From positions 10,276 through 74,275 of the forward strand of contig CAZHMG010000003.1 in NCBI GenBank assembly GCA_964533575.1: a stretch of 64,000 bases of DNA, given 5' to 3'. This document shows, piece by piece, positions 213-46,752 of this stretch (positions within the stretch are counted from its first letter, which is position 1; the number at the start of each line of letters is the position of its first letter). Position numbers and translations under genes: made by a program. The stretch comes from an uncultured Thermoleophilia bacterium (lineage in GTDB: Bacteria > Actinomycetota > Thermoleophilia > UBA2241). The notes beneath the pieces are model-generated. The model worked only from the letters and a program-made list of their open reading frames with translations, was not told the origin of the DNA and ran no database searches.

Positions 213-623
213 CGCACCTCCCGCCGCTGGCGCGTGTCATGGCTTTCACGATCCCCAAGTAACCGATCGGTCAGGATCACGATATACGTGCCCAACGCGA
301 GGGACAACTCCAGGCCCATTGAAGTGACAGACGTCGTAATCGATTGTAACGCGAAATAGTGGGCGGGGACTCCGGGCGCCCGCAGCGCGGCAGGCGGCCA
401 GCGACATCTGCCTGGGCTGGGCCAGGGGCCATCAGGAAGGCCGCTCCATGTACTGGCGGCAGTTGCGCGACATGAAGGGGTCCGCGACGTGGAGTCGATG
501 CGACCGCTCGCTCTCCTCGCCGGTGCCCCGGTTCAATCACCCCGACTTCGAGGGTGAGATCATCGGAACGGCGACGGGGCGGCCTCAAGGCCGCCCCGTC
601 GCATCGCCCCGGTCCCTTGGCTC

Positions 624-1121: not shown

Positions 1122-1400
1122 GCACCACTCCTTCTCGACGCTCCTGTGGTCCCGCCTCGGCGAGACCGTGACGAGATGATGTTACCGTAGGGTCAGTGTT
1201 GCTGCACGAGCCCGGAGCCCTCTCGGGCGTGGCGGACGACCTCATCGCGTGTTCTGCCGGCGACGGCCTTGACGGCCGGCCTGGACGGCAATGGAGTGAT
1301 GGAGCTGTGCGGTGTGCAGCCGGGGAAATGCTGGCGTACCGCTGTCGAGACGCTAGAATCAGTCGGGTACGCTCTGGCTCTCGGCTTTGAGGGGACGCCC

Positions 1401-4400
1401 GTGACACGAGAAGAGCTGCAGCCGGGCGTCTCACTGCCGCGGCTCATCTTCCGTCTGCCGCCTGATCCATCCCGGCTGCTGCGCGCACGCGAACGTATGC
1501 GCGACTACCTCCAGCAGTACTGCTCCGACCAGCGTGCCATTGACGATGTGGTTCTCGCCGTGCAGGAAGCCTGCACGAACGCCATCCGTCACAGCGGCTC
1601 GGAGGAGGACATCGAGGTGAACCTCCGTCTCGACGGGGGCGATCTCTTGGCCGAAGTGCGAGACAAGGGACGCGGGTTCGATGCCGGGGACATCGACCTG
1701 GACAAGCCACCCCCTCCGCTTGAGAACTGTGGCCGTGGTCTGTACCTGATGGCGCACCTCATGGATACCCTGACGCTCGACAACAGCGGGGGGCTCCGGG
1801 TGAGCATGACCAAGACCTGCATCCTGGGTCCTCCGTCGCTCCGCCCCTTCATTCCCTCTCTCGAGGGGGGTCTCACGAGTACGACCCGGCAGGCTCCTGA
1901 GGCCTCGCGGGAGGACCGTCTGCACGTGCTGCTCGAGGAGATCAACGAGGCGTTCTTCGCCCTCAACTGGGAGTACCGTGTCGTTCACGTCAATCGCCTC
2001 ACTGCCGAGCTCGCGGGCGAACCGTCGGAGCGGCTGCTGAACCGCGAGATCTCGGAGGCGTTCCCGCTTCTCGGCGACGAGGTGAAGAAGGCCTGCAGGG
2101 ACGCGATGGAGCTGGGCAGGCCCTCCGTGATCGAGCACTACTGCCCTCGGACGCTCCACTGGTTCGAGATCCGCGTCTATCCGACACTGGTCGGCATCAG
2201 TCTCTATCTGCGGGAGATCGACGAGCGCAAGCAGGCGGAGGAACAGCGGCGGCTGGCGGAGGAGAAGCTGCGTCAGCGGACTGAGGATCTGCTCGAGCGC
2301 GTGCGGTTGGACGATATCCTGCTCACGATCGACCAGCTCATCCATTCGACGCTCGAGATCCGCGAGATCATCCATCGCGCCCTCGACGAATCGCTGGCGG
2401 CGCTGCATGCGGACGTCGGCACGGTTGAAGTGCGTGAGGGCGACGAATGGAAGATGCATTATCAGCGAGGGGAAGGGTCGGCAGAGGACGAACGCGCCAG
2501 GCCGGACACGGAGATGCCGGTCGTCGCACGGGCTGCGCGCGCCAAGTCGGCCGTCGCCTTCTCGGACCTTCTCGACGATCCGGCCACGGCCGAGTTCGCC
2601 CGCGACCACAACGTGCGCAGCTGTCTGGCGGCGCCACTGATCATGCGCGAGGCGGTCGCCGGCTTCCTGATCATCTGGTGTCGCCGCCCGCGTGTCTTCT
2701 CGCCGATTGAGGTCGAGTTCGCGCGCAGGCTGGCTTCCTCGGTCTCCCTCGCCCTCGAGAACTCCCGGCTCTATGAGAGGGAGGCCCGCCTGGCCCAGAT
2801 GCCGGCGACGGATCCCTCGTTTCTCTGGCGCTTCATCTCCGTCTCGCGGAAGCACCCGCTGAAGGTGCTGGGCGTCGCCTCAGTGGTGTTGATCGTGCTG
2901 CTGGGGTCCATCGCCATCTGGGGCGACATGCCGCAGATCTACGGCATACCGGGATCGCTGGTCGCGCTGATCGTGATCATCACGGCCGCGCTGGGCGGCG
3001 GCAGAGCCGGGGTGGCGGCGGCTGTTATCGCGGGCGCCGTCTTCTTCGCGGGTCCGGCTGAGCTGGGGGAGGTAGTCTCGGCGGCGGCAGCACTCTCCGC
3101 CACCGCGCTCTGGGCCGTCACGGCGCTCATCGTCGGGTACTTGACGGACGCGCTGCGCCAGCAGGCTCGGCGCCAGAGGGCGGCCGCGCTCGCGCTGGGC
3201 AAGGCTGCCGCAGTCCGCGACGCCGAGCTCGCCGAGCAGCGCCGGGTCGAGAGTCTTGCCGTTGAGCTCGCCGCCGAGCGCGAGCAACTGCTGACCATGA
3301 TCGAACAGACGGACACCTCCATCGCCATCCTTGACCGTGACTTCGTCTTCCAACTCGTCAACTCGGCGTACGCGCGCAACAACGGCAAGCGCGCCGACGA
3401 GCTCATCGGACAGGACTACTTCGCCGTCTTCGAACGGGACGACTACCGGGAGGTGTTTGAGCGGGCGCGACACTCGGGCGAGCCGAGCGTGGCTCGCGCC
3501 CGCCCGATCCGATTCCAGAACCAGCCGGAGCGCGGCGTCACCTATTGGGATTGGCGGCTGGCGCCGGTCAAGGACGAGGCCGGACGCGTTCGCCGGCTGG
3601 TGGTCTCGGCGGTGGACGTGACCGAACGGGTTCAGTCGGCGCAGCTGAGCGAGACGCTCAATGCGATCAACGCCAGAGTCAGCTCGAGGCTCGACGCTCA
3701 TCACATCCGTGATGCCGTCCTCGAGCTGGCGGGGGCGGCGCTCTCGGCCGACGGAGGTATGGTCGTTGTCAAACGCCGGGGACAGTGGCGCCCCGTCCAG
3801 ATCTGGAAGCTGCCGGCCGAGCTGGAGACAGAGACGTTCACCCCGGACGAGTTCCCGCTGGCCGAGCTGGCGCTGCGCGAGCAGCGGCCGGTCTTCACGG
3901 CCGCCTACGGGGAAGAAGCCCGCATCAACCCCGTGCTGGCCCGGCGGCTGGGCATAGAGGCCCTGGTCGTGATCCCGCTGACGAGCAGCAAGGACATGCT
4001 GGGATGTCTGTACTTCGTGTACAACAGCCGCCGCGAACACAGCAGCGTCGAGATCGACTTCGCGCGGAAAGTCGGTGCAGTCATCTCGCAGGCGCTTGTC
4101 AACGCTCGTCTCCTCGACGACGTGCAGCGGGTGGCGACGACCCTGCAGGAGAATTTGATCCACCCGCTCAAAGCGTTCTACGGCCTCGAGCTCGGGCGTG
4201 TGTCACAGACGGCTTACCAGCCGGAGCTCGTGGGCGGCGACTTCAGTCATGTGTTTCGAGTCGACGAGAACCGGGTCGGCGTCCTGATCGGCGATGTGGA
4301 GGGCAAGGGTATTCTCGCCGCCGGGCTGACCGAGACGGTACGGAGCGCGCTTTCGGCATTCGCCTTGGTGAATCCCGCGCCGGAGTTCGTTCTTGAGAAG

Positions 4401-4835
4401 ACGAACGAGCTGCTGCTCGAGGGAGCCCCGACCGATCAGTTCGTCACCGCGTGCTACCTGCTCATTGATCTCCCATCGGGCGCGATCGCGTACGCGATCG
4501 CGGGCCACCCCGCGCCCGTCCTCCTGCGATCCGCGTCGTGCACGAGACTGGACACCGAACACGGGCTGCCGCTGGGCGTGTTTCCGGGAACGTACACCGC
4601 GGGACGCGCGCGCCTCGTGTACGGGGACACGATCATCCTCTTCACGGACGGTCTCACCGAGACGCGGCGCAAGAAGGAGTTCTTCGGCGAACAGCGCGTG
4701 ATCTCGACCGTGTGCGGGCTCGGCGGCCTCGGGGCCCAAGCCGTCGCCGAGCAGCTGAGGCAAGCGGCCATCGAGTTCGCGAACGAATTGCGCGACGACC
4801 TGCAGATCCTGACCGTGAGGTACACGCGTCGGTAG
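1401..4835 (+). CDS. Multidomain signalling protein: N-terminal RsbW-like anti-sigma Ser kinase domain (HATPase_c_2), PAS, GAF, hydrophobic segment, PAS, GAF and C-terminal PP2C (SpoIIE-type) phosphatase
   Basis: ORF 1269..4835. The start is placed at GTG 1401, which has GAGGGGA 5 nt upstream and gives the same N-terminal spacing (12 aa before PRLIFRLPPDP) as the paralog at 17905. The N-terminus has DDVVLAVQEACTNAIRHSG...GRGFD...GRGLYLM (HATPase). A hydrophobic block (LGVASVVLIVLLGSIAIWG...ALIVIITAALGGG...AVFFAGPA...ALWAVTALIVGYL) sits mid-protein. The C-terminus has VGGDFSHVF...GDVEGKGILAAGLTETVRSA...FTDGLTETRR (PP2C). Confidence 0.85.
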   Translation: MTREELQPGVSLPRLIFRLPPDPSRLLRARERMRDYLQQYCSDQRAIDDVVLAVQEACTNAIRHSGSEEDIEVNLRLDGGDLLAEVRDKGRGFDAGDIDLDKPPPPLENCGRGLYLMAHLMDTLTLDNSGGLRVSMTKTCILGPPSLRPFIPSLEGGLTSTTRQAPEASREDRLHVLLEEINEAFFALNWEYRVVHVNRLTAELAGEPSERLLNREISEAFPLLGDEVKKACRDAMELGRPSVIEHYCPRTLHWFEIRVYPTLVGISLYLREIDERKQAEEQRRLAEEKLRQRTEDLLERVRLDDILLTIDQLIHSTLEIREIIHRALDESLAALHADVGTVEVREGDEWKMHYQRGEGSAEDERARPDTEMPVVARAARAKSAVAFSDLLDDPATAEFARDHNVRSCLAAPLIMREAVAGFLIIWCRRPRVFSPIEVEFARRLASSVSLALENSRLYEREARLAQMPATDPSFLWRFISVSRKHPLKVLGVASVVLIVLLGSIAIWGDMPQIYGIPGSLVALIVIITAALGGGRAGVAAAVIAGAVFFAGPAELGEVVSAAAALSATALWAVTALIVGYLTDALRQQARRQRAAALALGKAAAVRDAELAEQRRVESLAVELAAEREQLLTMIEQTDTSIAILDRDFVFQLVNSAYARNNGKRADELIGQDYFAVFERDDYREVFERARHSGEPSVARARPIRFQNQPERGVTYWDWRLAPVKDEAGRVRRLVVSAVDVTERVQSAQLSETLNAINARVSSRLDAHHIRDAVLELAGAALSADGGMVVVKRRGQWRPVQIWKLPAELETETFTPDEFPLAELALREQRPVFTAAYGEEARINPVLARRLGIEALVVIPLTSSKDMLGCLYFVYNSRREHSSVEIDFARKVGAVISQALVNARLLDDVQRVATTLQENLIHPLKAFYGLELGRVSQTAYQPELVGGDFSHVFRVDENRVGVLIGDVEGKGILAAGLTETVRSALSAFALVNPAPEFVLEKTNELLLEGAPTDQFVTACYLLIDLPSGAIAYAIAGHPAPVLLRSASCTRLDTEHGLPLGVFPGTYTAGRARLVYGDTIILFTDGLTETRRKKEFFGEQRVISTVCGLGGLGAQAVAEQLRQAAIEFANELRDDLQILTVRYTRR

Positions 4836-5929: not shown

Positions 5930-6670
5930 CTACTCGCTCGCTTCGCCCGGACCTTCGATCTTGTCCTGCTCGGACTTGGGCACCTCGAGAAGATACCGAT
6001 AGACCAGGCCGGCGATGATCGCTCCGAGGATCGGGAACACGATGAAGAGCCAGAGCTGGGTGAGCGCCCAGCTCCCGACGAACAGGGCCGGCGCCAGGCT
6101 CCGGGCCGGGTTCACCGAGGTGTTCGTCACGGGGATGCTTATGAGGTGGATGAGAGTCAGCGCCAAGCCGATGGCGAGGGGCGCGAGACCCGCGGGTGCG
6201 CGTCGGTCGGTCACGCCGTGGATCACCAGCAGGAAGAAGAACGTCAGCAGCAGTTCCGCGACGATGGCCGCCAGCATGCTGTAGCCCTGCGGAGAATGCT
6301 CTCCGTAGCCGTTGGCGGCGAAGCCGTCGGCGAGCGTGAACCCGGCCTTGCCGCTGGCGATCACATACAGGACCGCCGACGCCGCCACGGCTCCGAGGAG
6401 TTGGGCGATGATGTACGGCGCCAGCTTGCTCGCAGGGAAGCGGCCACCGATCCAGAGGCCGATGCTGACCGCGGGATTGAAGTGCCCGCCGGAGATGTGA
6501 CCGACGGCGTAGGCCATGGTCACGACCGTGAGACCAAAGGCCAGCGATACGCCGAGCAGGCCGATGCCTTCGGCGCCGAGCGAGGCTGCCAGGACGGCGG
6601 CGCCGGTCCCGCCGAAGACCAACCAGAACGTGCCGAAGAACTCGGCCCCCAACTGCTTTCCTGTGTTCAT
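5930..6670 (-). CDS. aqpZ: Aquaporin Z / MIP family channel
   Basis: [21 protein letters not shown]...[17 protein letters not shown]...[11 protein letters not shown] carries two NPA motifs. ATG is at complement 6668-6670. Confidence 0.9.
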
Positions 6671-6872
6671 CGCTGTTCTCCCTTGGTCTTGAGTACGGCA
6701 GTGTGTTCCTCCCATTCAGGGGAACGCGAGCGCATACTAAACCATACGAACGAGTGCAAAGCCCCGCGCACGCATGGCTGCGAGTATCTGCGCGGGAGGG
6801 TGGTGAGCAGCGAAGGGGGAAGGGCCGGCGGTGTGCCGCCGGCCCTTCCCCCTGTGCGCTTCCGCAGTCGAC

Positions 6873-7016
6873 TCAGGCGGCCTTGCGCTCCGCCTCCTGC
6901 ATGTGCTGTTGCTTCTGCTGGTCGAACTTCCCGACCATCTGCTCGGCGGTCTCCTCATCGAGGATCATGCGCGCCGCTTGGAAGCCGAGCCCTTCCTCGT
7001 CGGTCACATGGTGCAT
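6873..7016 (-). CDS. Hypothetical small protein (47 aa), low-confidence ORF not in the track
   Basis: MHHVTDEEGLGFQAARMILDEETAEQMVGKFDQQKQQHMQEAERKAA has very high GC3 codon usage, consistent with coding. There is no clear SD. It could instead be a C-terminal remnant of a decayed gene. Confidence 0.25.
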   Translation of the reverse strand: MHHVTDEEGLGFQAARMILDEETAEQMVGKFDQQKQQHMQEAERKAA

Positions 7017-7192
7017 CACGAGCTCCGCAAGCAGCTGTGCGCCGGCGCCCTTCGCTCCCCCTGCCGTCCACGGGGAATTTCGCGGCGCTTGCAGGGGCGA
7101 GGCACTCGACGCCGTACCTGTAGTGACGGGACGAGAATGCGCCGCGTTCGGCGCTGCGAGGCTTGGAGAGGCGCCAGGCAGGGAGGCGTCAG

Positions 7193-7927
7193 ATGGACGA
7201 CGTGGATCATGTGCGGAAAGAGCTGGAAGCGCTGCTGCGAGCGGGCCGGGAGCTGAGCGCCGAAGCGGGCGGTGAACAGTTCGACCCGCGGGAGATCAAC
7301 GGTAGCTACCAGACCTGGTACACGCAGACCCGGCGCTTGGTCGCAACCGTGTTGCCGGACCGGCGGCGCGAGTTCGAGGCGTACTATCGGCCCTCGTCTG
7401 GCGGTGACGAATCGCATCCGACCATTGCCGGCATTCTCATCGGGTGGCGATCCGCGAAGGCTGTCGGCGAGAAGCGAGAGGGCTTGGCCCAGCTCTTCGG
7501 TCCCGGCAGCGAACGACGGGCCTTCCTGCACCTCTTTGACATGCAGCTCGCCATTCTCGCCTCGGCCCTGCCGACGATGCTGCCTCCGGAGAGGCCTCAT
7601 GACCGTGAACTCGAGCTCGCGCACGAACTCCTGAAAGGAGGTCATCGCCGGGCGGCAGGCGCGCTGGCCGGCATGGCGCTCGAGCAGCACCTGCAGCGGG
7701 TGGCTCTCCGGCGCGGCGTGGACGTTGCCCCGTCGGACGCTCGCAGCGCGGCGCGCCTCAACCGTGTCCTGCGCGCGGCGGGTGTATACGGCGGCGCTCG
7801 CAGCAGGCAGATACGCGACCTCATCGACCTCAGCACGGCGTGCCTGAGGGGCAAGGAGAAGCCGTCGCCGCAGCGCCTCGCATGGCTTCTGGCCGGTGCC
7901 GACGACGTCCTGCGGCACGTTCGCTGA
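7193..7927 (+). CDS. Hypothetical protein (244 aa), alpha-helical C-terminal half
   Basis: ORF 7163..7927. The start is placed at ATG 7193 because GGGAGG lies 7 nt upstream. GC3 is good on the + strand, and the overlapping minus ORF 7016..7918 has arginine-rich junk composition. No recognisable family. Confidence 0.45.
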   Translation: MDDVDHVRKELEALLRAGRELSAEAGGEQFDPREINGSYQTWYTQTRRLVATVLPDRRREFEAYYRPSSGGDESHPTIAGILIGWRSAKAVGEKREGLAQLFGPGSERRAFLHLFDMQLAILASALPTMLPPERPHDRELELAHELLKGGHRRAAGALAGMALEQHLQRVALRRGVDVAPSDARSAARLNRVLRAAGVYGGARSRQIRDLIDLSTACLRGKEKPSPQRLAWLLAGADDVLRHVR

Positions 7928-8119
7928 GGCAACGCCACGCCGCCGCGTTCGCCGCGTCGGCTGTTCTCGGTTACTCTAAATTGTGAGGCGTCGTGCCTGC
8001 CCGCCCGCACGACGCCCTCCGCGTTCCCGGTAAGAGGCTGCGCCCATCCGATCGCCCTCGGCTCCAGTGACGCGACTGCTGGCGGCGGGTGACGAGCGAC
8101 GAAACGAAGGAGGACGGCG

Positions 8120-8314
8120 ATGGCTGTTCCAGTGGTCGATCCCGAGCGCTGCACCGGCTGCGGCCTCTGCGAGACGATTTGTCCTGAAGTGTTCGAGCTG
8201 GGCGAAGACGGCATCGCGCGCGTCATCGACCCGGGGGCCTGCGATGAGGCGGGCTGCTGCGAGGAGGCCGCGGAGTCCTGCCCTGACGAGGCGATCATCC
8301 TGCAGGAGGACTGA
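8120..8314 (+). CDS. fdx: 4Fe-4S single-cluster ferredoxin
   Basis: MAVPVVDPERCTGCGLCETICPEVFELGEDGIARVIDPGACDEAGCCEEAAESCPDEA has the Cx2Cx2C...CP pattern. GAAGGAGGA SD is upstream. Confidence 0.8.
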   Translation: MAVPVVDPERCTGCGLCETICPEVFELGEDGIARVIDPGACDEAGCCEEAAESCPDEAIILQED

Positions 8315-8476
8315 GGCTTCTAGACTGCGTGACGAGCTGGGTGTGAAGGGCCACTCAGACGGCGACTCATCACCGCCAGGGTGGTGACGATCAGCGAGAG
8401 ATGGCGCCGAAGCTCGCCGGCGTGCCGGGGAATCCCTGTCGATAGAGTATGTCGGTCACGCGGCCCTCAAGGCCAT

Positions 8477-9265
8477 CTAGCGGGCCAGCCGGCCGAAGGC
8501 GAGGATGGTCGCGGCGTGCAGGACCACCCCGGCAATCGTCATGGAGAGCAGCGCGTCGCCGATCGCGCTCCAGTCGTATCCCGTCACCATCAGGCTGCGG
8601 ATGGCCTCGATCTGATAGCTCACCGGATTCCAGTCGTTGACGACCTGCATCCAGCCCGGCATCAGCTCACGGGGCACGAAGGCCGTGGAGATGAAGATCA
8701 CGGGGAACATCAGCAATGAGAGGGCGCTCGTCGCCTGCTCGCTCTTGGTAAGCAGCGCCGGGATGAAGCTCACGCCGGCGAAGGCGATGCCAAAGACGCC
8801 GCAGAGCAGCAGGATCAGGATGAAGCCGCCTGCGCCCGTGGCTATCGTGGCGCCCAGTATCAGGCTGGCGACAAGGAGCACTGCCGCCATGGCGGCTGAC
8901 TGGAAGAACAGGGGGAACATCTCGCCGCCCAGGATGGACCAGCGGCCGATCGGGCTGGTGCGCAGCCTGTCGAGGTAGCCGTTGCGGTACTCGACGAGGA
9001 GGCCGTAGCTGGCCCAGCCGACGGCCATGAAGGCGGCGAAGACGATCTGGCCGGGAGCCAGATACGCGAGGTAACTGTCGCCTCCGAAGGCGGGCAGCGC
9101 GACGATGTCCTGGTAAAGCTGGCTGAAGACGAGGAGCTGGATCAGCGGGAAGAAGATGATGCTGATCCAGTTGGCCGGCACGCGCAGGAAGCGCCGGGTC
9201 GTGCGCACCCCGAGATGGTAGGTTTCGTAGACGAATCCGGCGAGCGCGTGCACCCGTCTCACCAC
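8477..9265 (-). CDS. ABC-2 type transporter permease
   Basis: 262-aa polytopic membrane protein with the ABC-2 (DrrB-like) permease architecture. It overlaps the upstream ATPase gene by 7 nt, suggesting an operon. Confidence 0.8.
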   Translation of the reverse strand: MVRRVHALAGFVYETYHLGVRTTRRFLRVPANWISIIFFPLIQLLVFSQLYQDIVALPAFGGDSYLAYLAPGQIVFAAFMAVGWASYGLLVEYRNGYLDRLRTSPIGRWSILGGEMFPLFFQSAAMAAVLLVASLILGATIATGAGGFILILLLCGVFGIAFAGVSFIPALLTKSEQATSALSLLMFPVIFISTAFVPRELMPGWMQVVNDWNPVSYQIEAIRSLMVTGYDWSAIGDALLSMTIAGVVLHAATILAFGRLAR

Positions 9266-10257
9266 CCCAGAATGATCGGCTGATTCGCCGACTCCTCGCG
9301 GATGTGGCGCCCCGTGTACTTCAGAAAGACATCGTCCAGAACCGGACGGCTCATGTGGAGGCCCACCACCCGGAGTCCGTCACCCTCGAGCCGGCGCAGG
9401 ACTTCCGGGATGGCCGCGCCGGCGTCCGGCACCGAGAGGCTGACGCCGGCCGGATGCGAGGTCACTGCGTCCGCGGGCACCGTGCCCGCCAGCCGGCTCC
9501 GTACGGTGGAGGTGACGTCGTCGCCGTGCGGCTCCATCGCCAGGACCACGGTGTCCGCGCCCACGCTCGCCTTGAGCCTCTCCGGCGTGCCGTCCACGAC
9601 GATCCTGCCCGCGTCGATGATCGCGAGCCGCGAGCAGAGACGGTCCGCTTCCTCCATGTAGTGCGTTGTCAGCAGCATCGTCGTCCCCGCCGCGTTGATG
9701 CGCTCGAGCTCTTCCCACAGCGCGGTGCGGCTCTGCGGGTCCAGGCCCTCGGTCGGCTCGTCAAGGATGAGCAGCGAGGGCCGGTGCATGAGGGCGGCCG
9801 CCAGGTCGAGACGGCGCTTCATGCCGCCCGAGTACGTGCCTGTCAGCTTCTTCGCGGACTTCGTGAGCCCCATGAGCTCGAGCAGTTCGTCGCTGCGGCG
9901 GCGGATCTCCCGGGCTGGCAGCCGATGCAGCCGGCCGGCCAGCTCGAGCGTCTCGCGTCCGGTTGAGAAGGCGTCGAGCGTCGGTGTCTGCAGTGCGATC
10001 CCGAGCCGCTTGCGCACCTCCCGCGGCTGACGGCACACGTCGTGACCCGCAACCGCTGCCACGCCGGACGTCGGGCAGAGGAGGGTGGCCAGGATGCGGA
10101 TGGTCGTCGTCTTGCCGGCCCCGTTGGGTCCGAGAAAGCCGAACAGTTCGCCGGCCGCGACCGAGAAGCTGATCCCGTCGACGGCGCGTGTCTCGCCGTA
10201 GACCTTGACCAGATCGCGCACCTCGATGATCGGCATCTCGTCCACAGTGGGCATCAT
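9259..10257 (-). CDS. ABC transporter ATP-binding protein (DrrA-like)
   Basis: Has Walker A GPNGAGKTTT, signature LSGGMKRRL and Walker B LLILDEPTEGLD. The start is taken at MMPTVDEMPIIEVRDL. Confidence 0.9.
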   Translation of the reverse strand: MMPTVDEMPIIEVRDLVKVYGETRAVDGISFSVAAGELFGFLGPNGAGKTTTIRILATLLCPTSGVAAVAGHDVCRQPREVRKRLGIALQTPTLDAFSTGRETLELAGRLHRLPAREIRRRSDELLELMGLTKSAKKLTGTYSGGMKRRLDLAAALMHRPSLLILDEPTEGLDPQSRTALWEELERINAAGTTMLLTTHYMEEADRLCSRLAIIDAGRIVVDGTPERLKASVGADTVVLAMEPHGDDVTSTVRSRLAGTVPADAVTSHPAGVSLSVPDAGAAIPEVLRRLEGDGLRVVGLHMSRPVLDDVFLKYTGRHIREESANQPIILGW

Positions 10258-10386
10258 GGAGGCCTCAGGCCCTCCTGCGCAAACCCGTGCGCAGACGGCA
10301 TCTTCGTGCAAGGGAGGCGGGCACCGGCAGCGTGAGAAGCCCGGGGCGGAGGCTTTCACTCCGGGCTTCTCACGAAACCCGATCGT

Positions 10387-11554: not shown

Positions 11555-13510
11555 ATGAGCGGGATGACCCCTGATGACGTGTTCGCTCTGCGTGCGGCGG
11601 CTGATCCGCGCATCTCTCCTGACGGCGGCACGGTGGCGTACGTCGTCCAAGCAGTCAATCGCGAGGGGAATGCCTACACGAGTGCGATCTGGCTGCAGAG
11701 GGTCGACCGCTCCAAGGAGGCGCGTCAGCTCACCCGCGGCGAGAAGCAGGACGGCGAGCCGCGATGGTCGCCCGACGGTACGCGGCTCGCCTTCACATCC
11801 AATCGTGACGGGGACACGGCCCAGCTCTACGTGCTTCCGCTGTGCGGCGGCGAGCCTCGCAAGCTCACTTCACTCGAGGAGGACGTGACCGAGGCGACGT
11901 GGTCGCCGGACGGCAGTGCCATCGCCTTCGTTGCTCGGGTGCGCGACGCCGCCTACGACGAGAAGGACGAGCGGCGTCGCGCTCCCCGGCGTATCACCCG
12001 GCTACAGTACAAGCTTGAGCATGTCGGTTGGACTGCCGACAGGCCGCGGCACGTCTTCACCGTCGCGGCCGATGGATCCGGCGAACCGGTACAGCTCACG
12101 GCCGGCGATTTCGAGGACGCGGGACCTTCGTGGTCCCCGGACGGCGAGCAGATCGCTTTCGTCTCTGCCCGCCACCCCGACTGGGACACGGACACCGTGC
12201 GCGACGTGTACCTGGTCGACAGTGCCGGTGGAAAGCCGCGGCGGCTCACGCCGGGCGGTGCCGCCGTCGAAATGGTCTCCTGGTCGCCCGACGGACGGCG
12301 TCTGGCCGCGCAGCACTACGAGGGCGTCCTCGATGATCCGCGGCACACGCAGATCGCCGTCGTCGACGCCGAGACGGGCGCCGTGCAGGTGGTCACAGGC
12401 AGCCTCGACCGCAACTGCGGCGCCTACCCGCAGCTTCGCGAACCGTTGTGGGAGGGCGACGACCTCGTCTTCGCCGTCGAGGATCACGGAAACACGCACC
12501 TGTATCGGACCGGCGCCGACGGAACAGGGATCCCCCGGCTCGTCGTCGGCGGAGACCTCGCCGTGACCGGTTTCGATCTCGTCGCCGGACGGCTCGTCTA
12601 CGCGGCCTCGCCCCCGACCCGGCTGCCAGAGCTCTTCACCGCAGAGCGTCGCTTGACGGGCGTCGGCGACGCGTTCGCCGAAACGCGCCTGCTCAGCGAG
12701 CCGGCGCGTTTCACGGCCCGGTCGGCCGACGGGACGGAGGTCGAGGCCTGGGTCATGAAGCCGGCCGGCTGCGAGACCGGCCTCACCTGTCCCACCCTGC
12801 TGTGCATCCACGGCGGACCGTTCACTCAGTACGGCAACCACTTCTTCGACGAGTTTCAGGTGTACTGCGGCGCCGGCTTCGCGGTCGTCTACGCCAACCC
12901 GCGCGGCTCGTCCGGCTACAGCGAGGAATGGGGACGCGCCATCCGTGGCGACGGGACGAGTGGCGACGGCTGGGGGTCTGTCGACTACGAGGACTGCATG
13001 GCGGTCATCGACGAGGCCGTGCGTCGCTTCGACTTCATCGACGGCGACCGTCTTGGCGTGATGGGCGGCTCCTACGGCGGCTACTTGACGTCCTGGATCG
13101 TCGCCCACACGAACCGGTTCAAGGCCGCCATCTCAGAACGCGCCGTCAACCAGCTCGTCTCCCAGTGGGGCTCCAGCGACTCGGGATGGGATCTCCGGGG
13201 CTACATCGGATCGTTTCTGCACGAGGATGTGGAGGCCTACCTGCGGTTGTCGCCGGCATCGTACGCCGCGCACATCCACACGCCGCTCCTGCTGCTGCAC
13301 TCCGAGGAGGATCTGCGCTGTCCCGTCGAGCAGGCGGAGCACCTCTTCGTGACGCTGCGTCTGCTGCGAAGGCCGGTGGAACTCGTTCGCTTTCCCGGAG
13401 AGTCGCACGAACTGACGCGCTCGGGGAGCCCGATGCACCGGGTCCAGCGCTTCGAGATCGTGCTCGAATGGTTCGGCCGCTACCTCAAGAGCGAAGCGCC
13501 ATCCGGTTGA
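11555..13510 (+). CDS. S9 family peptidase (prolyl oligopeptidase / acylaminoacyl-peptidase-like, beta-propeller + alpha/beta hydrolase)
   Basis: Repeated WSPDG propeller motifs are followed by GGSYGGYLT (catalytic Ser) and C-terminal Asp/His segments. AAAGAGAGG SD precedes ATG 11555. Confidence 0.9.
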
Positions 13511-14170
13511 TCGTGCTCGCCTGATCGCCGGCGCCGAAACCGTTGTCGAGACTGACGACAGAGAAGCCGGGCGAGCAGGAGTTCATCATCGGGAGCAGCG
13601 CCGCGATGCCGCCGACGTTGGCCCCATAGCCGATACTGGTGGGCACCGCGATGACCGGGCATGAGACGAGTCCGCCGACGACGCTGGCCAACACTCCCTC
13701 CATGCCGGCGAACGCGACGATGGCGTTGGCTCGTTCCAGCGTCTCGCGCTTATCGAGGAGACGATGAATGCCGGCGACGCCGACATCGCGTTCGACCGCA
13801 CTGCCGGCGCACTCCGCCGTGAGCGCCGCCTCCTCGGCCACCGGGATGTCAGATGTGCCCGCGCTACAGACGCAGACGCAGCCCTCGAGCGGGATCTCGA
13901 CAGGGTTCACGACGGCAAGCCTGACGGCCTCATGGATCGGGCGGGGACGTGCTCGGCCAGCGCCGCCAGTACGTCCGGCGTCGCCCGGGTGGCGAGGACG
14001 TTCGTGTGGCCGTGGTCCACCATGCGCTGCGCGATCGCCACGACCTGCGCCGTGCTCTCGCCGGCGCAGAAGATGGCCTCGGCGTGGCCGCGTCGCAGGC
14101 GTCTTCGAGCTCCAGATCATCGTTGCGCACGGCGAGCAGCAGCTTGCGCAGTTCTTCTCGCTTTATGACA
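13485..14170 (-). pseudogene. larB: larB homologue (nickel-pincer cofactor biosynthesis, PurE-like) disrupted by at least two frameshifts
   Basis: Three minus-strand frames each carry consecutive LarB segments. The N-terminal ...[18 protein letters not shown] is in one frame. [52 protein letters not shown] follows in a second frame and ends in a stop. [35 protein letters not shown]...[64 protein letters not shown] is in the third (ORF 13485..14120). No larC or larE is nearby. Confidence 0.6.
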
Positions 14171-14197: not shown

Positions 14198-15121
14198 TCA
14201 TGGGGACGGCGAAGCAGCCGTCAGCGGCAGCGGGATTTTGACGACATGGGTGGGGAGACCGCTGGCGGCCGACGGCTCGAAGAGCTCGAGGACGATGCTG
14301 GACGAGGGCGCGATGAATCTCATCGTCGCGTTGAACGTGCCCCGCGTCCCCGAGCCCGATGTCGCCATCACGCTCTCCTCGACCAGCGTCGTTCCGCTCG
14401 CGTCGCGGACGCGGATCATGAATTGGGCCTCGAAGGTGTTGGCTGTCCCTTGAACGACGAGCGGACTGGCGACCCGATCGCCGACGGCGGGCCGCTCGAC
14501 GAAGATGGCCGGGGTGACGTCCTCGAACGAGCGGCGTGTCTGCGGCTGGCGTTGCGGCTCTCCTTCGCCGCTCCGGAAGACGAGGGGCTCACCGGCGACA
14601 CGAAAGCGCACGCCGTCGACTGTGGGGAACTGCGTCAGCGTGTAGACGATCTGAGCCAGCCTGGCCCTGTCTTCGATCGGGTCGACGCCGGCAACGAACT
14701 CCGGGCTCAGGTCGACGACTGCGAGCCCGTCACGAATCGTGAGGCCCAGCACTTTTGTGCCGGCTGGTATCTGCGTGTGCAGGCCGGCTGCGCGCTCTTC
14801 GCTGGTTGGACCCATGAGCAACTCCTCGAGCGCGGCGCCCGCCGGTGCGTTGGTGGCGGCGATCGCGCGATGTGCGGTCGCGACGAAGGCCCCGCGCAGG
14901 AGGTATACGGAGACTGTCGCTCTCTGCGGCGATGCGGTCGGGGAAGGGCTCGGCGCGCCCGACGTGGGGGAGGGCAGGGGGCTTGCGGTCGGCGAGGCGT
15001 CGCCGGGAGCGCTTGCCGAGGGTGTGGGACTTTCGTCGCTGCGGGAGATGCCGCAGCCGCCGAGCGAGAGGAGGGCGACAGTCGCGAGCAGGATGATGAT
15101 GAGTGAACGCGATACGCCCAT
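14198..15121 (-). CDS. GerMN domain-containing lipoprotein (Gmad2/LpqB-like)
   Basis: The start MGVSRSLIIILLATVALLSLGGCG gives a signal peptide plus lipobox. It is followed by a Pro/Ser/Thr-rich linker, a GerMN-like region (LLRGAFVATAHRAIAATNAPAGAALEELLMGPT) and a C-terminal beta-rich domain. Confidence 0.75.
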   Translation of the reverse strand: MGVSRSLIIILLATVALLSLGGCGISRSDESPTPSASAPGDASPTASPLPSPTSGAPSPSPTASPQRATVSVYLLRGAFVATAHRAIAATNAPAGAALEELLMGPTSEERAAGLHTQIPAGTKVLGLTIRDGLAVVDLSPEFVAGVDPIEDRARLAQIVYTLTQFPTVDGVRFRVAGEPLVFRSGEGEPQRQPQTRRSFEDVTPAIFVERPAVGDRVASPLVVQGTANTFEAQFMIRVRDASGTTLVEESVMATSGSGTRGTFNATMRFIAPSSSIVLELFEPSAASGLPTHVVKIPLPLTAASPSP

Positions 15122-17800: not shown

Positions 17801-17904
17801 GAGGCCGCGGACCCTACCGAGCACAGAAGCCCGTGTCAACGGCCATGTACCGGCGTCCGGACCCTGTTCTATACTCGGTCTTCGTCCTTCGCGATTGTTG
17901 GAGC

Positions 17905-20900
17905 ATGGTGAGTCAGACAGACGTCGGCGAGGCTGGGTCCGTTCCGCGGCTCGAGTTCAGTCTCCCATATGATCCTGCCCGCCTCCTGCGCGCTCGGGTG
18001 CGCTTGCGTGAGTACCTGAGCCATCTGACGACCGAGGAGCACACGGTCGACGAGGTCATTCTCGCGATCATGGAGGCGGCGACCAACGCTCTTCGCCACA
18101 GCGGCGGATCAGGGTCGTTCGACATCAGGCTGTCCGTCGAGGACGACGAGCTGGTGGCCGTCGTTCGGGACGACGGCCAAGGATTCGATCCCTCTGGATT
18201 CCACAGGGACGAAACGCCCGATCCGCTGAGCATCGGCGGGCGGGGCCTCTTCCTCATGACCAGGCTCATGGACGCGGTGGACTTCAGTTTCGACGGAGGG
18301 TGTCAGGTGCTGATGCGCAAGCGCCTGGCCCTGGCCCCGGGATTCACGCCGCTCGGCTTCGCCCGCGCGGCCTCGCCCGAGCGCATGCACGACGGCCTCA
18401 ACGAGCGCCTCATCGAGATGCTGGAAGACGGCGACGAGGCCTTCACCGCCCTCGACTGGGAGTTCCGTTACCTGTACGTCAATCGCGCTTCAGAGCGCCT
18501 GGCGAGGCACTCCCGCCAGGAGGTCATCGGCCGCTGTGTCTTCGACGTCTTTCCGACCATGAAGGAAAGCGTGTACGAGCGCAACTACCGGCTGGCCATG
18601 GAGGAGGGTGTCGTCGCCTATTTCGAGGCGCGGTTCGAGCCGTACGGCGCATGGGACGAGCTGCGCGTCTACCCCGCGCCCTTCGGCATCGCCATCTACT
18701 TCCGTGACATCACGGAGCGCAAGCGGGTGGAGGCCGAGCATCGCGAGCTGCTGAGCGCCGTCGAGCGGCAGCGGGCGCAACTGGGAGCCGTCCTCGAGCA
18801 CCTCAACGAGGGCGTTGTGGTCGTCGATGCCGAGGCCAAGGTGCTCCAGGCGAACGCCGCCGCGCGGCGTATGGGAGGCTTCGACCGGGAGCGCGTCAGC
18901 CGCGTGCCGGACATGTGGTCCGAGTTCGAGTTGCTGACGCTGTCTGGACGGCGCCTCGCGGCGCACGAGCTACCGGGGGAGCGCGTCGCCCGCGGCGAAC
19001 GGTTCTCCGGCCTCGAGCTCACGGTCCGCAATCAGGAGAGTGGACGAGAGTTGCTGGTCAGCTTCGACGGCGTGCCCGTCCGGGACGAGCAGGGCCAGGT
19101 GGCGCTGGGCCTGCTCGCGATTCACGACATCAGCGACCGGAAGCGGGAGGAGGCGCGCGAAGCCCTGCACGGCGCGGTGGTGCGCGGCGTCACGGAGATC
19201 CTTGAGGCCGCGCTCGCCTGTACCGACGAGGAAGCGCTTGGTCGCGTGTGCCTCCGGGTCGCCGAGGGGGTGACGCAGAGCGAGTTCGGCTTCATCGACG
19301 AGATCGTCGAGGGCGACAGGCTGGCCGGCATCGCCATGAGCGACGCGGGGTATGGGGCCTGTTCGGTCGGCGAGCATCCCGGCTTCGTCGAGGGCAAAGC
19401 GAGCGACAAGGCGGCGCTGATACGCGGGCTGCACGGCGAGGTCGTTCGCTGTGGCGAGGCCTTCTACACGAACGATCCGGCGACCCACCCGGCGAGCGAA
19501 GGTCTGCCCGCGGGTCACGTCCCGTTGCACGCTTTCCTGGGTGCGCCCCTCAAGCGCGGTGCCGAGACCATCGGTGTCGTCGCGGTAGGCAATCGCGCCG
19601 GCGGATACGGCGACGATCAGCGCTGGGCGCTGGAGAGCCTTGCCTCCGTGATCGTTCAGGCGATCGATCGCCTGCGGGCACGCGCAGCCCTGCAGGAGTC
19701 CCTGGCGAGAACCCGGGTGCTGGCCAGGATCGCGGCAGCCGCGGCGGGGGCCGACAGTGCAGAACAGGTGTCGGAGGCCGTCCTGGTCGCCGCCGCCCTG
19801 CATCTCGGGCTCAAGGCGGGCAGCGTCAATTGTCTTGACGAGGTGCACGGAGAACTGCAGCGCTGCGCCACGTTCGGCGCCGCCTATGGCGATGATCCGT
19901 CCCTTCGCCTCGCCATCCCCATGGACGACACGTTCAACGTCGGCCGGATGCTGAGCGGGGGGCTGCCGTACATGACTCATGAGAGTCCCGGCCAGTCAGA
20001 GGCCAGTCGAGCGCGTTTCGCAGGGATGGGGTTCGCGGGCGACAGCTGGGTCAAGGTGCCGATCAAGACGAGCGAGAGAGTCCTCGGCGCGATGACCCTC
20101 GTGTTTCCGGGCAAGCGCGCCTTTCATCGGGACGACATCGCCTTCTACGGCGCCGTCGCTGACCAACTCGGCGTCGCGCTGCAACGCGCGCGGCTGGCTG
20201 ACGAACGCGAGACGCAGCGTCGCCTGCTCCAGCGGACGGCGCACCTCAGCCTCACTCTCGACGTGGTGAACGATGCCGTTCGGGGCGTCGTTGAGCCGCT
20301 CTCCGCCTTGGCGCAGGGCGCCCACCTGGCGGCAGCGGCGCTCGGCGCCCGGCTGTCTTCGCTCCACCTCCTCAGCGACGGCACGTGGCAGGAGCTCCGC
20401 AGAGAGAACGACGCCATCCTCTCTCGCCCTTGCGCCGCGGAGGAGGTGCCGTTGGGCGACCTGGTGCGAGAGGTCATGCGCCCTGTGGCATTCTGTCGCT
20501 TACCCGGCGCAGCCGCCCTTCTGAGTGAAGGCGCCCCACGCAGCGAATGCCTGCTCGGCGCGCCGCTTGCCAGCGGCGGTGAGATGCTCGGCGCGGTCTT
20601 CTTCGCCTCAGAGGAGGCGAGGGAGTACACGCAGGCCGAGCTCGACTTCGCACGCAAGGTCGGCGTGGCGCTCGGAGGCGCTCTCCAGAACAGGCAGCTG
20701 TATGTGGCGCTGAACGAGCAACTCGAGCTTTCGCACCTGCTTCTGCGGGCCTCCAAGGTTCTCACGCAGTGGACCGACCTCGCAGCCATGCTCGAGCGCC
20801 TGACCGACGTTCTGCTGCTCTCTGCCCCCGGTTCGCGCGTCGGTGTCGTCCTGGTCCATCCAGAGCGACATCACGCGGAGCTGGCCGCCTCCAAGGGCAT

Positions 20901-22950
20901 CGCTCCCCTCGAGAAGGGCGAGTACCTGCCGGAGGTGCTGCTCGCCGGCAGGGGAGACCTGATCCGTGCGCCGCGCACCGTCGTGGCTGAGTACGATGGT
21001 GACCTGGGGATGTCACGGGCGAAGACAGGCTTCCCGCGTCACAGACTCTTTGTGCCGGTGATGTCACGCGGCCGTCTCATGGGCTTTCTGACCGTCGAGG
21101 CTCCGGAGTCGCGGCAGGGGTTCACCCCCGGTGAGGTGAGGACGGTGGAGGCGATTGCCGACCAGGCCGCCACCGCCATCGAGAACGCACGGCTGTACGA
21201 CGCGGAGGTCGAGGCTCAGCGCCGCGCCGCGCGCGAGCTGGAGACGTCCCAACTGCTCCTCACGACCGCTTCCGCCTTCAGCTCGGAGACGGATCCCAGG
21301 CAACTCCTCAATGTGGTCACCGAAACGCTGATGCGTCGTTTCGACGAGGCCCGCGTGTCGATCACGTTGCGTCATGACGACGTGGAGACGATTGTCGCCA
21401 CCTCCGGCGGCCACGCCTACCCTGTCGGGACCGTCTTCAGGCGCGAGGAGTACTCCAAGCCGGCCCTCGAGGCCATGGAGACGGGCCGCGCCGTCGCAAT
21501 CGACTATGAGGTGCTGCCTCCCGAGGAGCGCGGTACGTCCTGCCAGTACGGCATGTGCAACAGCATTGTCGCTCCGCTCGTCACCCGCGGCCGGACCATC
21601 GGCATCCTGGTCATCGACCAAGCCAACGCTCGCACCGTCTTCACGGAGCGGGATGTGCGTCTTGCCCAGGCCATCGCCGACCAGGCCGCCGTCGCGATCG
21701 ACAACGCCATGATGCTCGACAAGGAGCGCGAGGACGCGCGCTTCGGCGAAGCGCTCGACGAGGCGGGGAAGCTGCTGCACTCTTCGCTGGACGACGACAC
21801 CATTCTGGCCGGCGCGCTGCAGTCCGGGGCACGCGCGCTGCTCGCCATCTCCGGCGTGATCGCAGTCATCGAGCGGGGAAGATGGGTCGCGAAGTGCCAG
21901 GTCGGCTTCTCGCCGGATGTTGTCGGACGCTCGTGGCCTGATGAAACGGTGCCGTTCATGGCGCAGGTTCGGCGACAGCGTGGACCGGCGATCATGAGGG
22001 ACGCGCAGGGCGGCGATAGACATCTGGCCGGGAGCGCGACCCCGCCGTCTGTCGGCTCTACGCTGGCGATTCCGCTGACGGTCGGGGAGGAGGTCGTCGG
22101 CGTGCTCGTCTACAACAAGGCCGAGATCGATGCGTTCTCGGAGGCGGAAGTGACGTTTGCCGGCAGGCTCGCGCGCTCCGTTTCGCTCGCCCTGCAGAAC
22201 GCGCGGCTCTTTGCGAACGAGCACACCATCGCCGAGACGCTGCAGGAGGCGCTGCTCGCCATGCCGGAAGCGGTGCCCGGCTTCACCATCGCCCACACGT
22301 ACCACTCCGCAACAGTGGCGGCTCGGGTGGGCGGTGACTTCTACGACGTCTTCGAGATCGCCGACGACGTCGTCGGCGTCGTCGTGGGCGACATCTCAGG
22401 CAAGGGTCTTGACGCAGCCGTGTTCACCTCAGTGGTCAAGAACGCGATCCGGGCCCAGGCCATGGACGAGGGCAAGTCGCCGGCAGACGTGCTGCGCGTC
22501 GTCAACGAGGTCCTGCTGCGCAGTTCGGCGCCGGAGATCTTCGCTTCCGTCTTCTTCGCGATCATCGAGAACGGGCACGTCGTGTACTGCAATGCAGGCC
22601 ACACGCCGGCACTGCTCCTGCATCACGACCTCAGTCTCGAGTGGTTGCCGCATACATCGCCCGTGGTGGGCGCCTTCCCGGACATGCCCTTTGTTTGCGC
22701 GGAGGCCCGTATCGAGCCCGGCGAGCTGCTCTTCCTCTACACAGACGGGCTCGTCGAGGCGCGCGTGGACGGCGTCCTCTTCGGCGAACACGGGCTCCTC
22801 GCACTGTTCGCCGAGCCGGGGATGAATGACGCCGCCTCGGCGGTGAATCGTGTGTCCGCCGCCGTGGTCGAGTTCGCCGAAGGCCGGCTGTCGGACGACC
22901 TCGCCCTGCTCGCCATCACGCCGGACGGCGCCTCCGGGTTCACGCGTTAG
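17905..22950 (+). CDS. Giant multidomain signalling protein (~1680 aa): N-terminal RsbW-like HATPase_c_2 kinase domain, two PAS, at least four GAF domains, C-terminal PP2C (SpoIIE-type) phosphatase
   Basis: It is a paralog of the 1401..4835 gene (PRLEFSLPYDPARLLRARVRLREYL vs PRLIFRLPPDPSRLLRARERMRDYL). HATPase motifs are EVILAIMEAATNALRHSG...GQGFD...GRGLFLM. The PAS domain contains DWEFRYLYVNRASERLARHSRQEVIGRCVFDVFP. Repeated GAF-like blocks each end ...ALQNARL(Y/F). The C-terminus is VGGDFYDVFEIADDVVGVVVGDISGKGLDAAVFTSVVKNAIRA...YTDGLVEAR. Confidence 0.85.
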   Translation: MVSQTDVGEAGSVPRLEFSLPYDPARLLRARVRLREYLSHLTTEEHTVDEVILAIMEAATNALRHSGGSGSFDIRLSVEDDELVAVVRDDGQGFDPSGFHRDETPDPLSIGGRGLFLMTRLMDAVDFSFDGGCQVLMRKRLALAPGFTPLGFARAASPERMHDGLNERLIEMLEDGDEAFTALDWEFRYLYVNRASERLARHSRQEVIGRCVFDVFPTMKESVYERNYRLAMEEGVVAYFEARFEPYGAWDELRVYPAPFGIAIYFRDITERKRVEAEHRELLSAVERQRAQLGAVLEHLNEGVVVVDAEAKVLQANAAARRMGGFDRERVSRVPDMWSEFELLTLSGRRLAAHELPGERVARGERFSGLELTVRNQESGRELLVSFDGVPVRDEQGQVALGLLAIHDISDRKREEAREALHGAVVRGVTEILEAALACTDEEALGRVCLRVAEGVTQSEFGFIDEIVEGDRLAGIAMSDAGYGACSVGEHPGFVEGKASDKAALIRGLHGEVVRCGEAFYTNDPATHPASEGLPAGHVPLHAFLGAPLKRGAETIGVVAVGNRAGGYGDDQRWALESLASVIVQAIDRLRARAALQESLARTRVLARIAAAAAGADSAEQVSEAVLVAAALHLGLKAGSVNCLDEVHGELQRCATFGAAYGDDPSLRLAIPMDDTFNVGRMLSGGLPYMTHESPGQSEASRARFAGMGFAGDSWVKVPIKTSERVLGAMTLVFPGKRAFHRDDIAFYGAVADQLGVALQRARLADERETQRRLLQRTAHLSLTLDVVNDAVRGVVEPLSALAQGAHLAAAALGARLSSLHLLSDGTWQELRRENDAILSRPCAAEEVPLGDLVREVMRPVAFCRLPGAAALLSEGAPRSECLLGAPLASGGEMLGAVFFASEEAREYTQAELDFARKVGVALGGALQNRQLYVALNEQLELSHLLLRASKVLTQWTDLAAMLERLTDVLLLSAPGSRVGVVLVHPERHHAELAASKGIAPLEKGEYLPEVLLAGRGDLIRAPRTVVAEYDGDLGMSRAKTGFPRHRLFVPVMSRGRLMGFLTVEAPESRQGFTPGEVRTVEAIADQAATAIENARLYDAEVEAQRRAARELETSQLLLTTASAFSSETDPRQLLNVVTETLMRRFDEARVSITLRHDDVETIVATSGGHAYPVGTVFRREEYSKPALEAMETGRAVAIDYEVLPPEERGTSCQYGMCNSIVAPLVTRGRTIGILVIDQANARTVFTERDVRLAQAIADQAAVAIDNAMMLDKEREDARFGEALDEAGKLLHSSLDDDTILAGALQSGARALLAISGVIAVIERGRWVAKCQVGFSPDVVGRSWPDETVPFMAQVRRQRGPAIMRDAQGGDRHLAGSATPPSVGSTLAIPLTVGEEVVGVLVYNKAEIDAFSEAEVTFAGRLARSVSLALQNARLFANEHTIAETLQEALLAMPEAVPGFTIAHTYHSATVAARVGGDFYDVFEIADDVVGVVVGDISGKGLDAAVFTSVVKNAIRAQAMDEGKSPADVLRVVNEVLLRSSAPEIFASVFFAIIENGHVVYCNAGHTPALLLHHDLSLEWLPHTSPVVGAFPDMPFVCAEARIEPGELLFLYTDGLVEARVDGVLFGEHGLLALFAEPGMNDAASAVNRVSAAVVEFAEGRLSDDLALLAITPDGASGFTR

Positions 22951-23142
22951 CCGGGGCTGGCTGCGCCGCACCGGCTGCCTCTCCCTTCCGCCGCCCTTCC
23001 CGCCTCGTTCTGATTTCCGCCGGGGCAACGGCGCAAAGGGGGAGGAGTATCGCCAGACTCTGCCGAAAAACGCTCACATCGCACGATGCCGGCGCCGATG
23101 GTGCCCCGGCAGGCTATGGAGCGTTTGACGGAGGCGCACGAC

Positions 23143-23544
23143 ATGAGAACCGGTATGCTGACCACTCGCAAGCTGCGCAGCACCAGTGATCTGCAGAGCC
23201 TGCGCGAGTGGTTGCGGGGTGAGCTCGCCTCGTACGCCGACAGAGCATTGGTGGCTGACGTGGTCGTGGCCACCCAGGAGGCGGTGACCAACTCACTCCG
23301 CTCTCACGGCGAAGGCACGCGCCCCGTCAAAGTGAGACTCACTGTCGATGATGACTACCTTTGGGTGGAGGTCGAGGACTGTGGTTCCGGCTTCCTGAGG
23401 GTCGAGACATGGTGCCAGCGGCCGTCTTCCGATGCCGTCCACGGACGCGGGCTTTATCTCATGCGGACCCTCATGGATGTCCTTGAGATCTCCTCTTACC
23501 CGGCGGGGTCACGCGTTCGCATGGGGAAGCGCCTCGTCGCCTGA
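23143..23544 (+). CDS. Anti-sigma regulatory factor (RsbW/SpoIIAB-like Ser/Thr kinase, HATPase_c_2), stand-alone
   Basis: MRTGMLTTRKL...ADVVVATQEAVTNSLRSHGEG...VEVEDCGSGF...HGRGLYLMRTLMD. GGAGG lies 8 nt before ATG 23143. The in-frame 23086 start is less likely. Confidence 0.8.
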   Translation: MRTGMLTTRKLRSTSDLQSLREWLRGELASYADRALVADVVVATQEAVTNSLRSHGEGTRPVKVRLTVDDDYLWVEVEDCGSGFLRVETWCQRPSSDAVHGRGLYLMRTLMDVLEISSYPAGSRVRMGKRLVA

Positions 23545-28736: not shown

Positions 28737-28890
28737 TCGTGGGCCTTTCGTTGCGTCAGCGATGGTGCCTGTGACACACAGGCTTCCCGCCCGCAGGATG
28801 GGACAAACGGGACGCGAACGAGGACACTCGCGGCTGAGGCCGAGCGGGGCGGGAGACTCAGCCTGGCCGCGGGGCGGCCCGGCTCGCGCA

Positions 28891-29268: not shown

Positions 29269-29365
29269 GTTCGCCTCCTGCTGATGATCTTGGACTCGTC
29301 GTGCGTGTCGCCGAAAGCGGTCCGGCGGCCGGTTCAGGGGGAGGTCGGCCGCCGGACCGCAACCG

Positions 29366-46750: not shown

Positions 46751-46752
46751 GG

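Follow-up and report, generated by a model that had tools for sequence, protein, structure and literature searches.

larB is the first gene in the making of the nickel-pincer cofactor. Its product, LarB, carboxylates NaAD at C5 and hydrolyses it to P2CMN and AMP, and P2CMN is then converted into the nickel-pincer cofactor via LarE and LarC (PMC11796402; PMC13524815). The cofactor is used by racemases and epimerases of the LarA family and by other enzymes, and its use goes beyond lactate racemase (PMC11796402; PMC13524815). Here we describe a larB homologue on the minus strand of a 64-kb window (by which we mean the whole stretch of DNA that was analysed) from an uncultured, Thermoleophilia-like bacterium. 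The locus is very probably a non-functional, vertically inherited larB pseudogene and not an assembly artefact.

Like LarB, the remnant is homologous across the whole family model once its reading frames have been joined. Specifically, the joined conceptual protein matches NCBIfam LarB NF033503 with 241.1 bits (E=9e-72) over model positions 2-209 of 209. Its GTSD, MEG and NSC motifs correspond to S127, E180 and C221 of L. plantarum LarB, and the equivalents of all three residues are still present (counted from the alignment to 7mj0). Going by its title, the study of Rankin et al. 2021 (cited in PMC11796402) reportedly deals with the role of C221 in L. plantarum LarB. Unlike LarB, the remnant has no start codon, is broken in frame at two places, has lost 23 N-terminal residues and a Leu-Tyr pair, and carries Glu in place of the Lys of GK(T/S), together with other substitutions at invariant columns. 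It descends from the LarB family but is dead, and no longer a working member.

The nearest points of comparison are the intact Thermoleophilia orthologues (P0001/L001, P0005/L082, P0135/L083-L084 and P0003/L090-L091), with which the remnant shares its chromosomal position. These orthologues are uninterrupted and encode 251-255 aa, whereas the remnant carries four lesions and three to five times more lineage-specific changes. The C-terminal domain of the remnant also resembles PurE (N5-CAIR mutase / AIR carboxylase, the parent fold) in that it matches Pfam AIRC. Nevertheless, we rejected a PurE identity for this domain, as it reached only 22.6 bits against the purE equivalog TIGR01162, far under the cutoff of 149.6 bits. 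The features of the locus and of its two neighbours are given below, in positions of the window.

13485..14166, minus strand: whole larB remnant, very probably a pseudogene; length 682 nt (intact orthologue L001: 756 nt)
14164..14166, minus strand: ATA at the ancestral start position (ATG in L001 and L082, GTG in L083)
14101..14166, minus strand: N-terminal helix segment, 22 codons in the first frame, aligning to MNPDDLRRLLTEVRDGGVEID of P0001
14098..14099, minus strand: junction of a frame-shifting 67-nt deletion; the 67 nt are kept in 3/3 intact orthologues
13938..14098, minus strand: middle segment (...VLATRA...VPAR) in the second frame; NF033503 positions 4-60, 38.8 bits
13937..13938, minus strand: 1-nt deletion, the second frameshift; CG-ATC against CGN ATC/GTC in relatives
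13485..13937, minus strand: PurE-like C-terminal domain (...NSCSPG...RMALRS, then stop TGA at 13487-13485) in the third frame; Pfam AIRC E=1.4e-11
13788..13789, minus strand: 6-nt in-frame deletion; the Leu-Tyr/Phe of the R-L-Y-D-V-G-V-A-G motif is gone
13485..13910, minus strand: 141-aa ORF with a GTG start; P0017 on record is 99% identical, the start residue being the only difference
14198..15121, minus strand: intact gene for a Germane/Gmad2 lipoprotein (307 aa), the upstream neighbour, ending 31 nt before the larB remnant
11555..13510, plus strand: convergent neighbour, an intact gene for an S9 prolyl-oligopeptidase-type peptidase (651 aa); the 3' ends of this gene and larB overlap by 26 nt

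A larB homologue with four lesions in three reading frames

Three-frame translation of the minus strand between 13485 and 14166 gave one LarB homologue divided among three reading frames. An earlier note, made from the DNA alone, had placed a larB homologue at this position and on this strand in three frames, and both the translation and the NF033503 match agree with it. The cutoff of NF033503 is 175 bits, and a full-length score requires manual joining of the three frames; only the joined translation exceeded the cutoff over the full model, while the longest single-frame piece reached 190.8 bits at model positions 65-209. Judged by its score, the LarB match of the joined translation lies far above chance level. 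The joined translation was 66-73% identical to intact Thermoleophilia LarB proteins of 251-255 aa. Its closest relative was P0001, which itself matches the L. plantarum LarB structure 7mj0 (E=5e-66). When the pieces were compared with P0001 by tblastn, identity was 68% for the middle segment (to P0001 residues 44-106) and 81% for the C-terminal domain. At the DNA level, column identity to L001 was 85% in the pairwise alignment.

Lesions were called from the pairwise DNA alignment to L001 and from a four-way alignment with two further orthologues. Both alignments showed four lesions that are specific to the window sequence and absent from the intact syntenic orthologues. At the 5' end, where the ancestral start codon has become ATA, the first frame contains no ATG, GTG or TTG from the upstream stop to the 67-nt deletion. 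This deletion removed ~23 codons including the conserved motif L..LP..DLGFA..D.HR, and the remnant thereby lacks the N-terminal motif L..LP..(D/E)LG.A..D.HR that is conserved ahead of R.G..E. The 1-nt deletion lies in the context CCCGCCCG-ATCC, which has no homopolymer run. The 6-nt deletion took out a Tyr column that is at least 97% conserved among homologues. An uninterrupted ORF of ~250 aa with a usable start, which is intact in 118/118 homologues (at least 240 aa), is not found in the remnant.

The two frameshifts recorded in the earlier note stand as frame breaks and can now be specified, the first being the 67-nt deletion and the second the loss of a single base. As a list of lesions the note was incomplete, with the ATA start and the 6-nt in-frame deletion missing from it.

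Lapsed constraint

Conservation was assessed against 118 LarB homologues of at least 240 aa each. The remnant departs at 5 of the 54 columns that are invariant in the 118 homologues, and at 11 of the 83 columns that are at least 97% conserved; at the latter, the homologues depart at 0.45 columns on average and at 4 at most. These 11 deviating columns consist of six gaps and five substitutions. Five of the gaps (L, L, P, A, D) fall in the deleted N-terminal motif and the sixth is the deleted Tyr, and the substitutions are K to E in GK(T/S), A to V in MEGAL, L to M in MLNSC, and both N to S and I to L in VVNIDNG. None of the 118 homologues combines all the changes seen in the catalytic domain (K to E, loss of the Tyr, and others). 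The set of catalytic-domain residues made up by GK(T/S), GTSD, YDVGVAG, GMEGAL, PTS.GYG, MLNSC and VVNIDNG is therefore not complete in the remnant, in which GTSD, PTS.GYG, NSC and MEG are retained. Decay is thus advanced but incomplete, with the equivalents of Ser127, Glu180 and the cysteine of NSC yet to be erased.

The larB of the window has also accumulated far more amino-acid changes of its own than its relatives have. With four taxa, 26 lineage-specific changes were counted in the window larB vs 5, 7 and 10 in the intact orthologues, and with five taxa the counts were 21 vs 4-7. In three genes near larB (S9, Gmad2 and SepF) the window had 34, 16 and 4 lineage-specific changes vs 60, 32 and 10 in L083, and its lineage was not the fastest there. 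Relative to the neighbouring genes, the larB excess was roughly 4-5-fold (Fisher odds ratio 4.9, p=6e-5), and the excess of lineage-specific changes persisted when the C-terminal domain was taken alone (five taxa).

Counts by codon position point in the same direction. Nucleotide singletons in the C-terminal domain at first, second and third positions numbered 10/7/12 in the window vs 1/1/5, 4/3/8, 4/3/20 and 3/2/3 in intact orthologues, and the nucleotide changes specific to the window were about equally frequent at the three positions (17/13/17). When five taxa were used, the codon-position ratio, resting on small counts, ceased to set the window apart from every orthologue, and pairwise dN/dS was only marginally raised (0.20-0.27 in window pairs vs 0.17-0.28). 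Pairwise dN/dS was rejected as a sensitive test, since it hardly tells the window and the intact orthologues apart, and singleton counts on the terminal branch were preferred. Given that pairwise dN/dS was barely up and that the codon-position ratio was unstable, we count both as supportive only. Overall, the remnant does not appear to be held under purifying selection. Judging from the proportion of terminal-branch changes that are of the non-synonymous type, the gene has probably been unconstrained over a substantial part of that branch, although this is a rough and undated estimate. The pseudogene is moderately old.

Assembly error, residual function and the proposed history

The earlier note had offered two explanations for the broken frames, a gene in decay or indel errors in the assembly. 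According to the second, the organism would have an intact larB, and assembly or sequencing errors in the MAG contig would account for the frame breaks. The window does appear to stem from a metagenome-assembled contig, and MAGs can carry errors. In addition, a 24-nt exact pattern across the 67-nt junction had no match in JGI metagenome contigs, and support for the junction comes from Logan contigs only, maybe from the same study. Against this, two Logan assemblies, each built from a single run, agree with the window at 100% identity over the ATA and the 67-nt deletion, one of them also over the 1-nt deletion, although these contigs may share reads with the MAG and are stronger evidence against an artefact of the assembler than against one of the sequencing chemistry. 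Specifically, L088 (SRR13723393) corresponds to window positions 16224-13793 and spans the ATA, the 67-nt junction and the 1-nt deletion, and L089 (SRR13723394) corresponds to 16116-13990 and spans the ATA and the 67-nt junction, both at 100% identity and gap-free. The two contigs were retrieved via the exact Germane/Gmad2 protein, which is present in Logan contigs, and their coverage stops short of the 6-nt deletion and of the last 300 nt at the 3' end. Two more Logan contigs matched the window at 100% at its left end. In exact-protein look-ups, Logan contigs were reached with the DUF1269 and Gmad2 proteins alone; the 141-aa ORF, a 211-aa ORF, RNase PH and the S9 peptidase returned no match.

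The nature of the lesions also argues against error. A 67-nt deletion is not plausible as a read error; the 67-nt and 6-nt deletions and the start-codon substitution are atypical of indel errors, the 1-nt deletion lies outside a homopolymer, and indel errors cannot generate an excess of substitutions at invariant residues. No other gene is broken in the 64-kb window, where ~50 other ORFs show full-length domain matches without frameshifts or split genes. Overlapping same-strand ORF pairs at 8477-10386, 27891-31192, 35775-39823, 40036-41665, 44122-46750 and 58092-59938 were considered as frameshifts and rejected, as they are separate genes with complete domains. We therefore give an intact larB hidden by assembly errors next to no chance: the gap-free, identical per-run Logan contigs and the unbroken remainder of the window effectively refute it. 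The note's other explanation, a decaying gene, is strongly favoured by the four independent lesions, the substitutions at invariant residues and the ~4-5-fold excess of lineage-specific changes. Even so, a decayed gene might still yield a shortened functional product, either the 141-aa PurE-like domain started at GTG 13910 or a full product made through recoding. It is consistent with such a product that P0017 on record equals the 141-aa ORF apart from the start residue, and that the C-terminal domain alone reaches the 190.8 bits against NCBIfam LarB and retains the GTSD, MEG and NSC motifs. However, the same domain taken alone shows the same excess of lineage-specific changes, is substituted at invariant columns and lacks the conserved Tyr; no Shine-Dalgarno-like sequence lies ahead of GTG 13910, and the N-terminal region missing here is present in 118/118 homologues. 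Programmed frameshifting was likewise rejected as a route to a full product, because two shifts and a non-canonical ATA start would be needed and 23 conserved residues would still be absent. A functional product of either kind is thus very unlikely. P0017 most likely represents the gene call made for the source record itself, and the 141-aa ORF would be a gene-caller artefact inside the pseudogene.

On the reading that we prefer, a non-functional larB pseudogene inherited vertically, the ancestor carried an intact larB of 251-255 aa between the Germane/Gmad2 lipoprotein gene and the convergent S9 peptidase gene, as the intact orthologues do. The lineage then acquired the change from ATG to ATA, the 67-nt deletion, the 1-nt deletion and the 6-nt in-frame deletion, all of which are seen in the alignments. 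Substitutions at otherwise invariant positions would have followed later, as expected if purifying selection was absent for a substantial part of the terminal branch. Production of LarB protein from this locus would be impossible. With the start codon absent, two frame breaks and the N-terminal segment gone, the locus in all likelihood could not supply LarB activity. As a consequence, this copy would be unable to carboxylate or hydrolyse NaAD, and an organism without a second larB elsewhere would be unable to make the nickel-pincer cofactor.

Isolated position and the cause of decay

The synteny common to the orthologues is (F420 oxidoreductase, SepF) - Germane/Gmad2 - larB - convergent S9 peptidase. 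The P0001 gene, for instance, sits on a 1.37-Mb contig with F420 oxidoreductase, Germane/Gmad2 and the convergent S9 peptidase. An intact larB stands alone between the Gmad2 and S9 peptidase genes in four of five related populations (among them L001, L083/L084 and L090/L091). In the fifth, L082, larB lies between the same two genes with extra genes inserted beside it; just upstream of larB are an AraC regulator, a 592-aa protein with no Pfam hit and a LarC C-terminal fragment of 162 aa. L085, which is more distant, carries larC directly after larB.

Among the ~50 ORFs spanning the 64-kb window there was no LarA (PF09861), LarC (PF01969) or LarE-type domain, and tblastn with two Thermoleophilia LarC sequences found no larC remnant in the window. 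This agrees with the earlier report that larC, larE and larA are absent nearby. The window also held no second LarB-like sequence. The description of the gene as an orphan had been taken further, as a sign of pathway loss, and here we differ: the intact orthologues in four related populations are equally isolated, and since the isolation is common to them, the position is uninformative on pathway loss. From the shared gene order, the isolated position of larB appears to be ancestral for the subclade. Other lar genes, if any, are sited elsewhere in the genome.

As to why larB decayed, the nickel-pincer pathway and its client enzymes may have become dispensable and been lost, an explanation that we regard as evenly balanced. 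LarA, LarC and LarE domains are absent throughout the 64-kb window, and LarB has no known role outside the nickel-pincer pathway (PMC11796402; PMC13524815). Moreover, with many substitutions since the decay, cofactor from this copy has apparently been unneeded for a long time. Nonetheless, the local absence of lar genes is uninformative, given that the intact larB in L001, L083/L084 and L090 is equally isolated, and a second larB paralogue is conceivable, as Sporomusa termitida and Sporomusa ovata each have two LarB entries. The pathway could accordingly persist if another larB, either a paralogue or a horizontally acquired copy, had taken over. The two LarB entries of Sporomusa termitida share one contig size of 5.18 Mb and the two of S. 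ovata one of 5.43 Mb, and lar genes have been rearranged near the locus in relatives (the LarC fragment in L082 and the adjacent larB and larC in L085). Such a replacement seems unlikely to us, however: the window has no second LarB-like sequence, and LarB matches apart from the 141-aa fragment were none closer than 73% identity, which is a weak argument against a close paralogue in public assemblies. When genome contigs were searched with the C-terminal domain, generic LarB motifs saturated the search, and the LarB loci that it yielded were all distant (56-67% identity). It is possible, but somewhat doubtful, that the decay of larB marks a single Thermoleophilia population that has lost the entire nickel-pincer system, while its close relatives keep it.

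The finding itself is a routine one, an ordinary pseudogene of a known family, and it matters mainly for annotation. In the record, a larB pseudogene at 13485-14166 should take the place of the 141-aa 'AIRC-domain protein', and metabolic reconstruction of the MAG should give no credit for nickel-pincer cofactor synthesis from this locus. With the isolation of larB being ancestral in the clade, local absence of lar partners is no sign of pathway loss there. If larC and larE also proved absent genome-wide, comparison with the intact relatives could nominate cofactor-dependent enzymes. If the loss of the whole system is true, genes that decayed alongside larB and are intact in relatives could point to such enzymes, and the candidates would include enzymes outside the LarA family; the population would then offer a natural knock-out for phylogenetic profiling.

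The 141-aa reading frame and single-run contigs

The recorded protein P0017, which corresponds to the C-terminal PurE-like part of the larB pseudogene, is identical except for its start residue to the 141-aa ORF at window 13485-13910 (-), and very probably represents the gene prediction of the source record itself. This ORF lies wholly within the pseudogene, and an AIRC-domain protein would be the annotation expected for it.

Contigs assembled from single sequencing runs (Logan) overlap the larB remnant or, in other cases, the left edge of the window. The contig from SRR13723393 (L088) ends at window 13793, 4-5 nt short of the 6-nt deletion site between 13789 and 13788; low coverage, or a graph branch from a variant, could account for this end. 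Since the contig stops before that site, the 6-nt larB lesion is without independent confirmation. The contigs from SRR13723394 and SRR13723397 (L086 and L087) share 100% identity with window 1-1265 and 1-1322, and run ~0.9 kb past position 1 on the left, into a TetR-family regulator gene. Given this identity, three or more sequencing runs contain the same strain.

Gene content beside larB in relatives

In a related Thermoleophilia locus with an intact larB (L082), three genes are inserted between the Gmad2 lipoprotein gene and larB, at L082:6559-9959:

Genes of the L082 insertion (all within 6559-9959)
AraC-family regulator
592-aa protein, without a Pfam match
162-aa LarC C-terminal fragment, PF01969 positions 250-362/375

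A Pfam search at E<=0.1 matched nothing in the 592-aa protein, which is, by adjacency, a candidate nickel-pincer-related gene. Not a trace of the three-gene block was found in the window.

SpoIIE-type signalling proteins

Three large signalling proteins of the window have a SpoIIE-type PP2C phosphatase as output, and the window also encodes a small stand-alone HATPase_c_2 protein:

Signalling genes of the window
1191-4835 (+), SpoIIE-type, 1214 aa, with HATPase_c_2, PAS and multiple GAF domains
17803-22950 (+), SpoIIE-type, 1715 aa, with HATPase_c_2, PAS and multiple GAF domains
62744-64000 (-), SpoIIE-type, with PAS domains and SpoIIE only
23014-23544, small stand-alone HATPase_c_2 protein

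Proteins related to these SpoIIE/HATPase_c_2 signalling proteins adjoin the larB locus of relatives.

Other features of the window

The SmpB gene within window 45869-47637 has a full-length PF01668 match; ARAGORN and Rfam were both negative for tmRNA over the entire window. About 600 nt (47031-47637), 3' of the pterin-4a-carbinolamine dehydratase gene, carry no assigned feature. A tandem pair of neighbouring EamA-family transporter genes, with two EamA repeats per gene, occupies 58092-59938 (+).

A single unbroken ORF at 29369-31192 (-) places topoisomerase IB domains N-terminal of a hemerythrin domain:

Domains of ORF 29369-31192 (-)
aa 117-383, Top1B_N_bact and Topoisom_I (bacterial topoisomerase IB)
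aa 473-585, hemerythrin HHE, C-terminal

This ORF may encode a TopIB-hemerythrin fusion.
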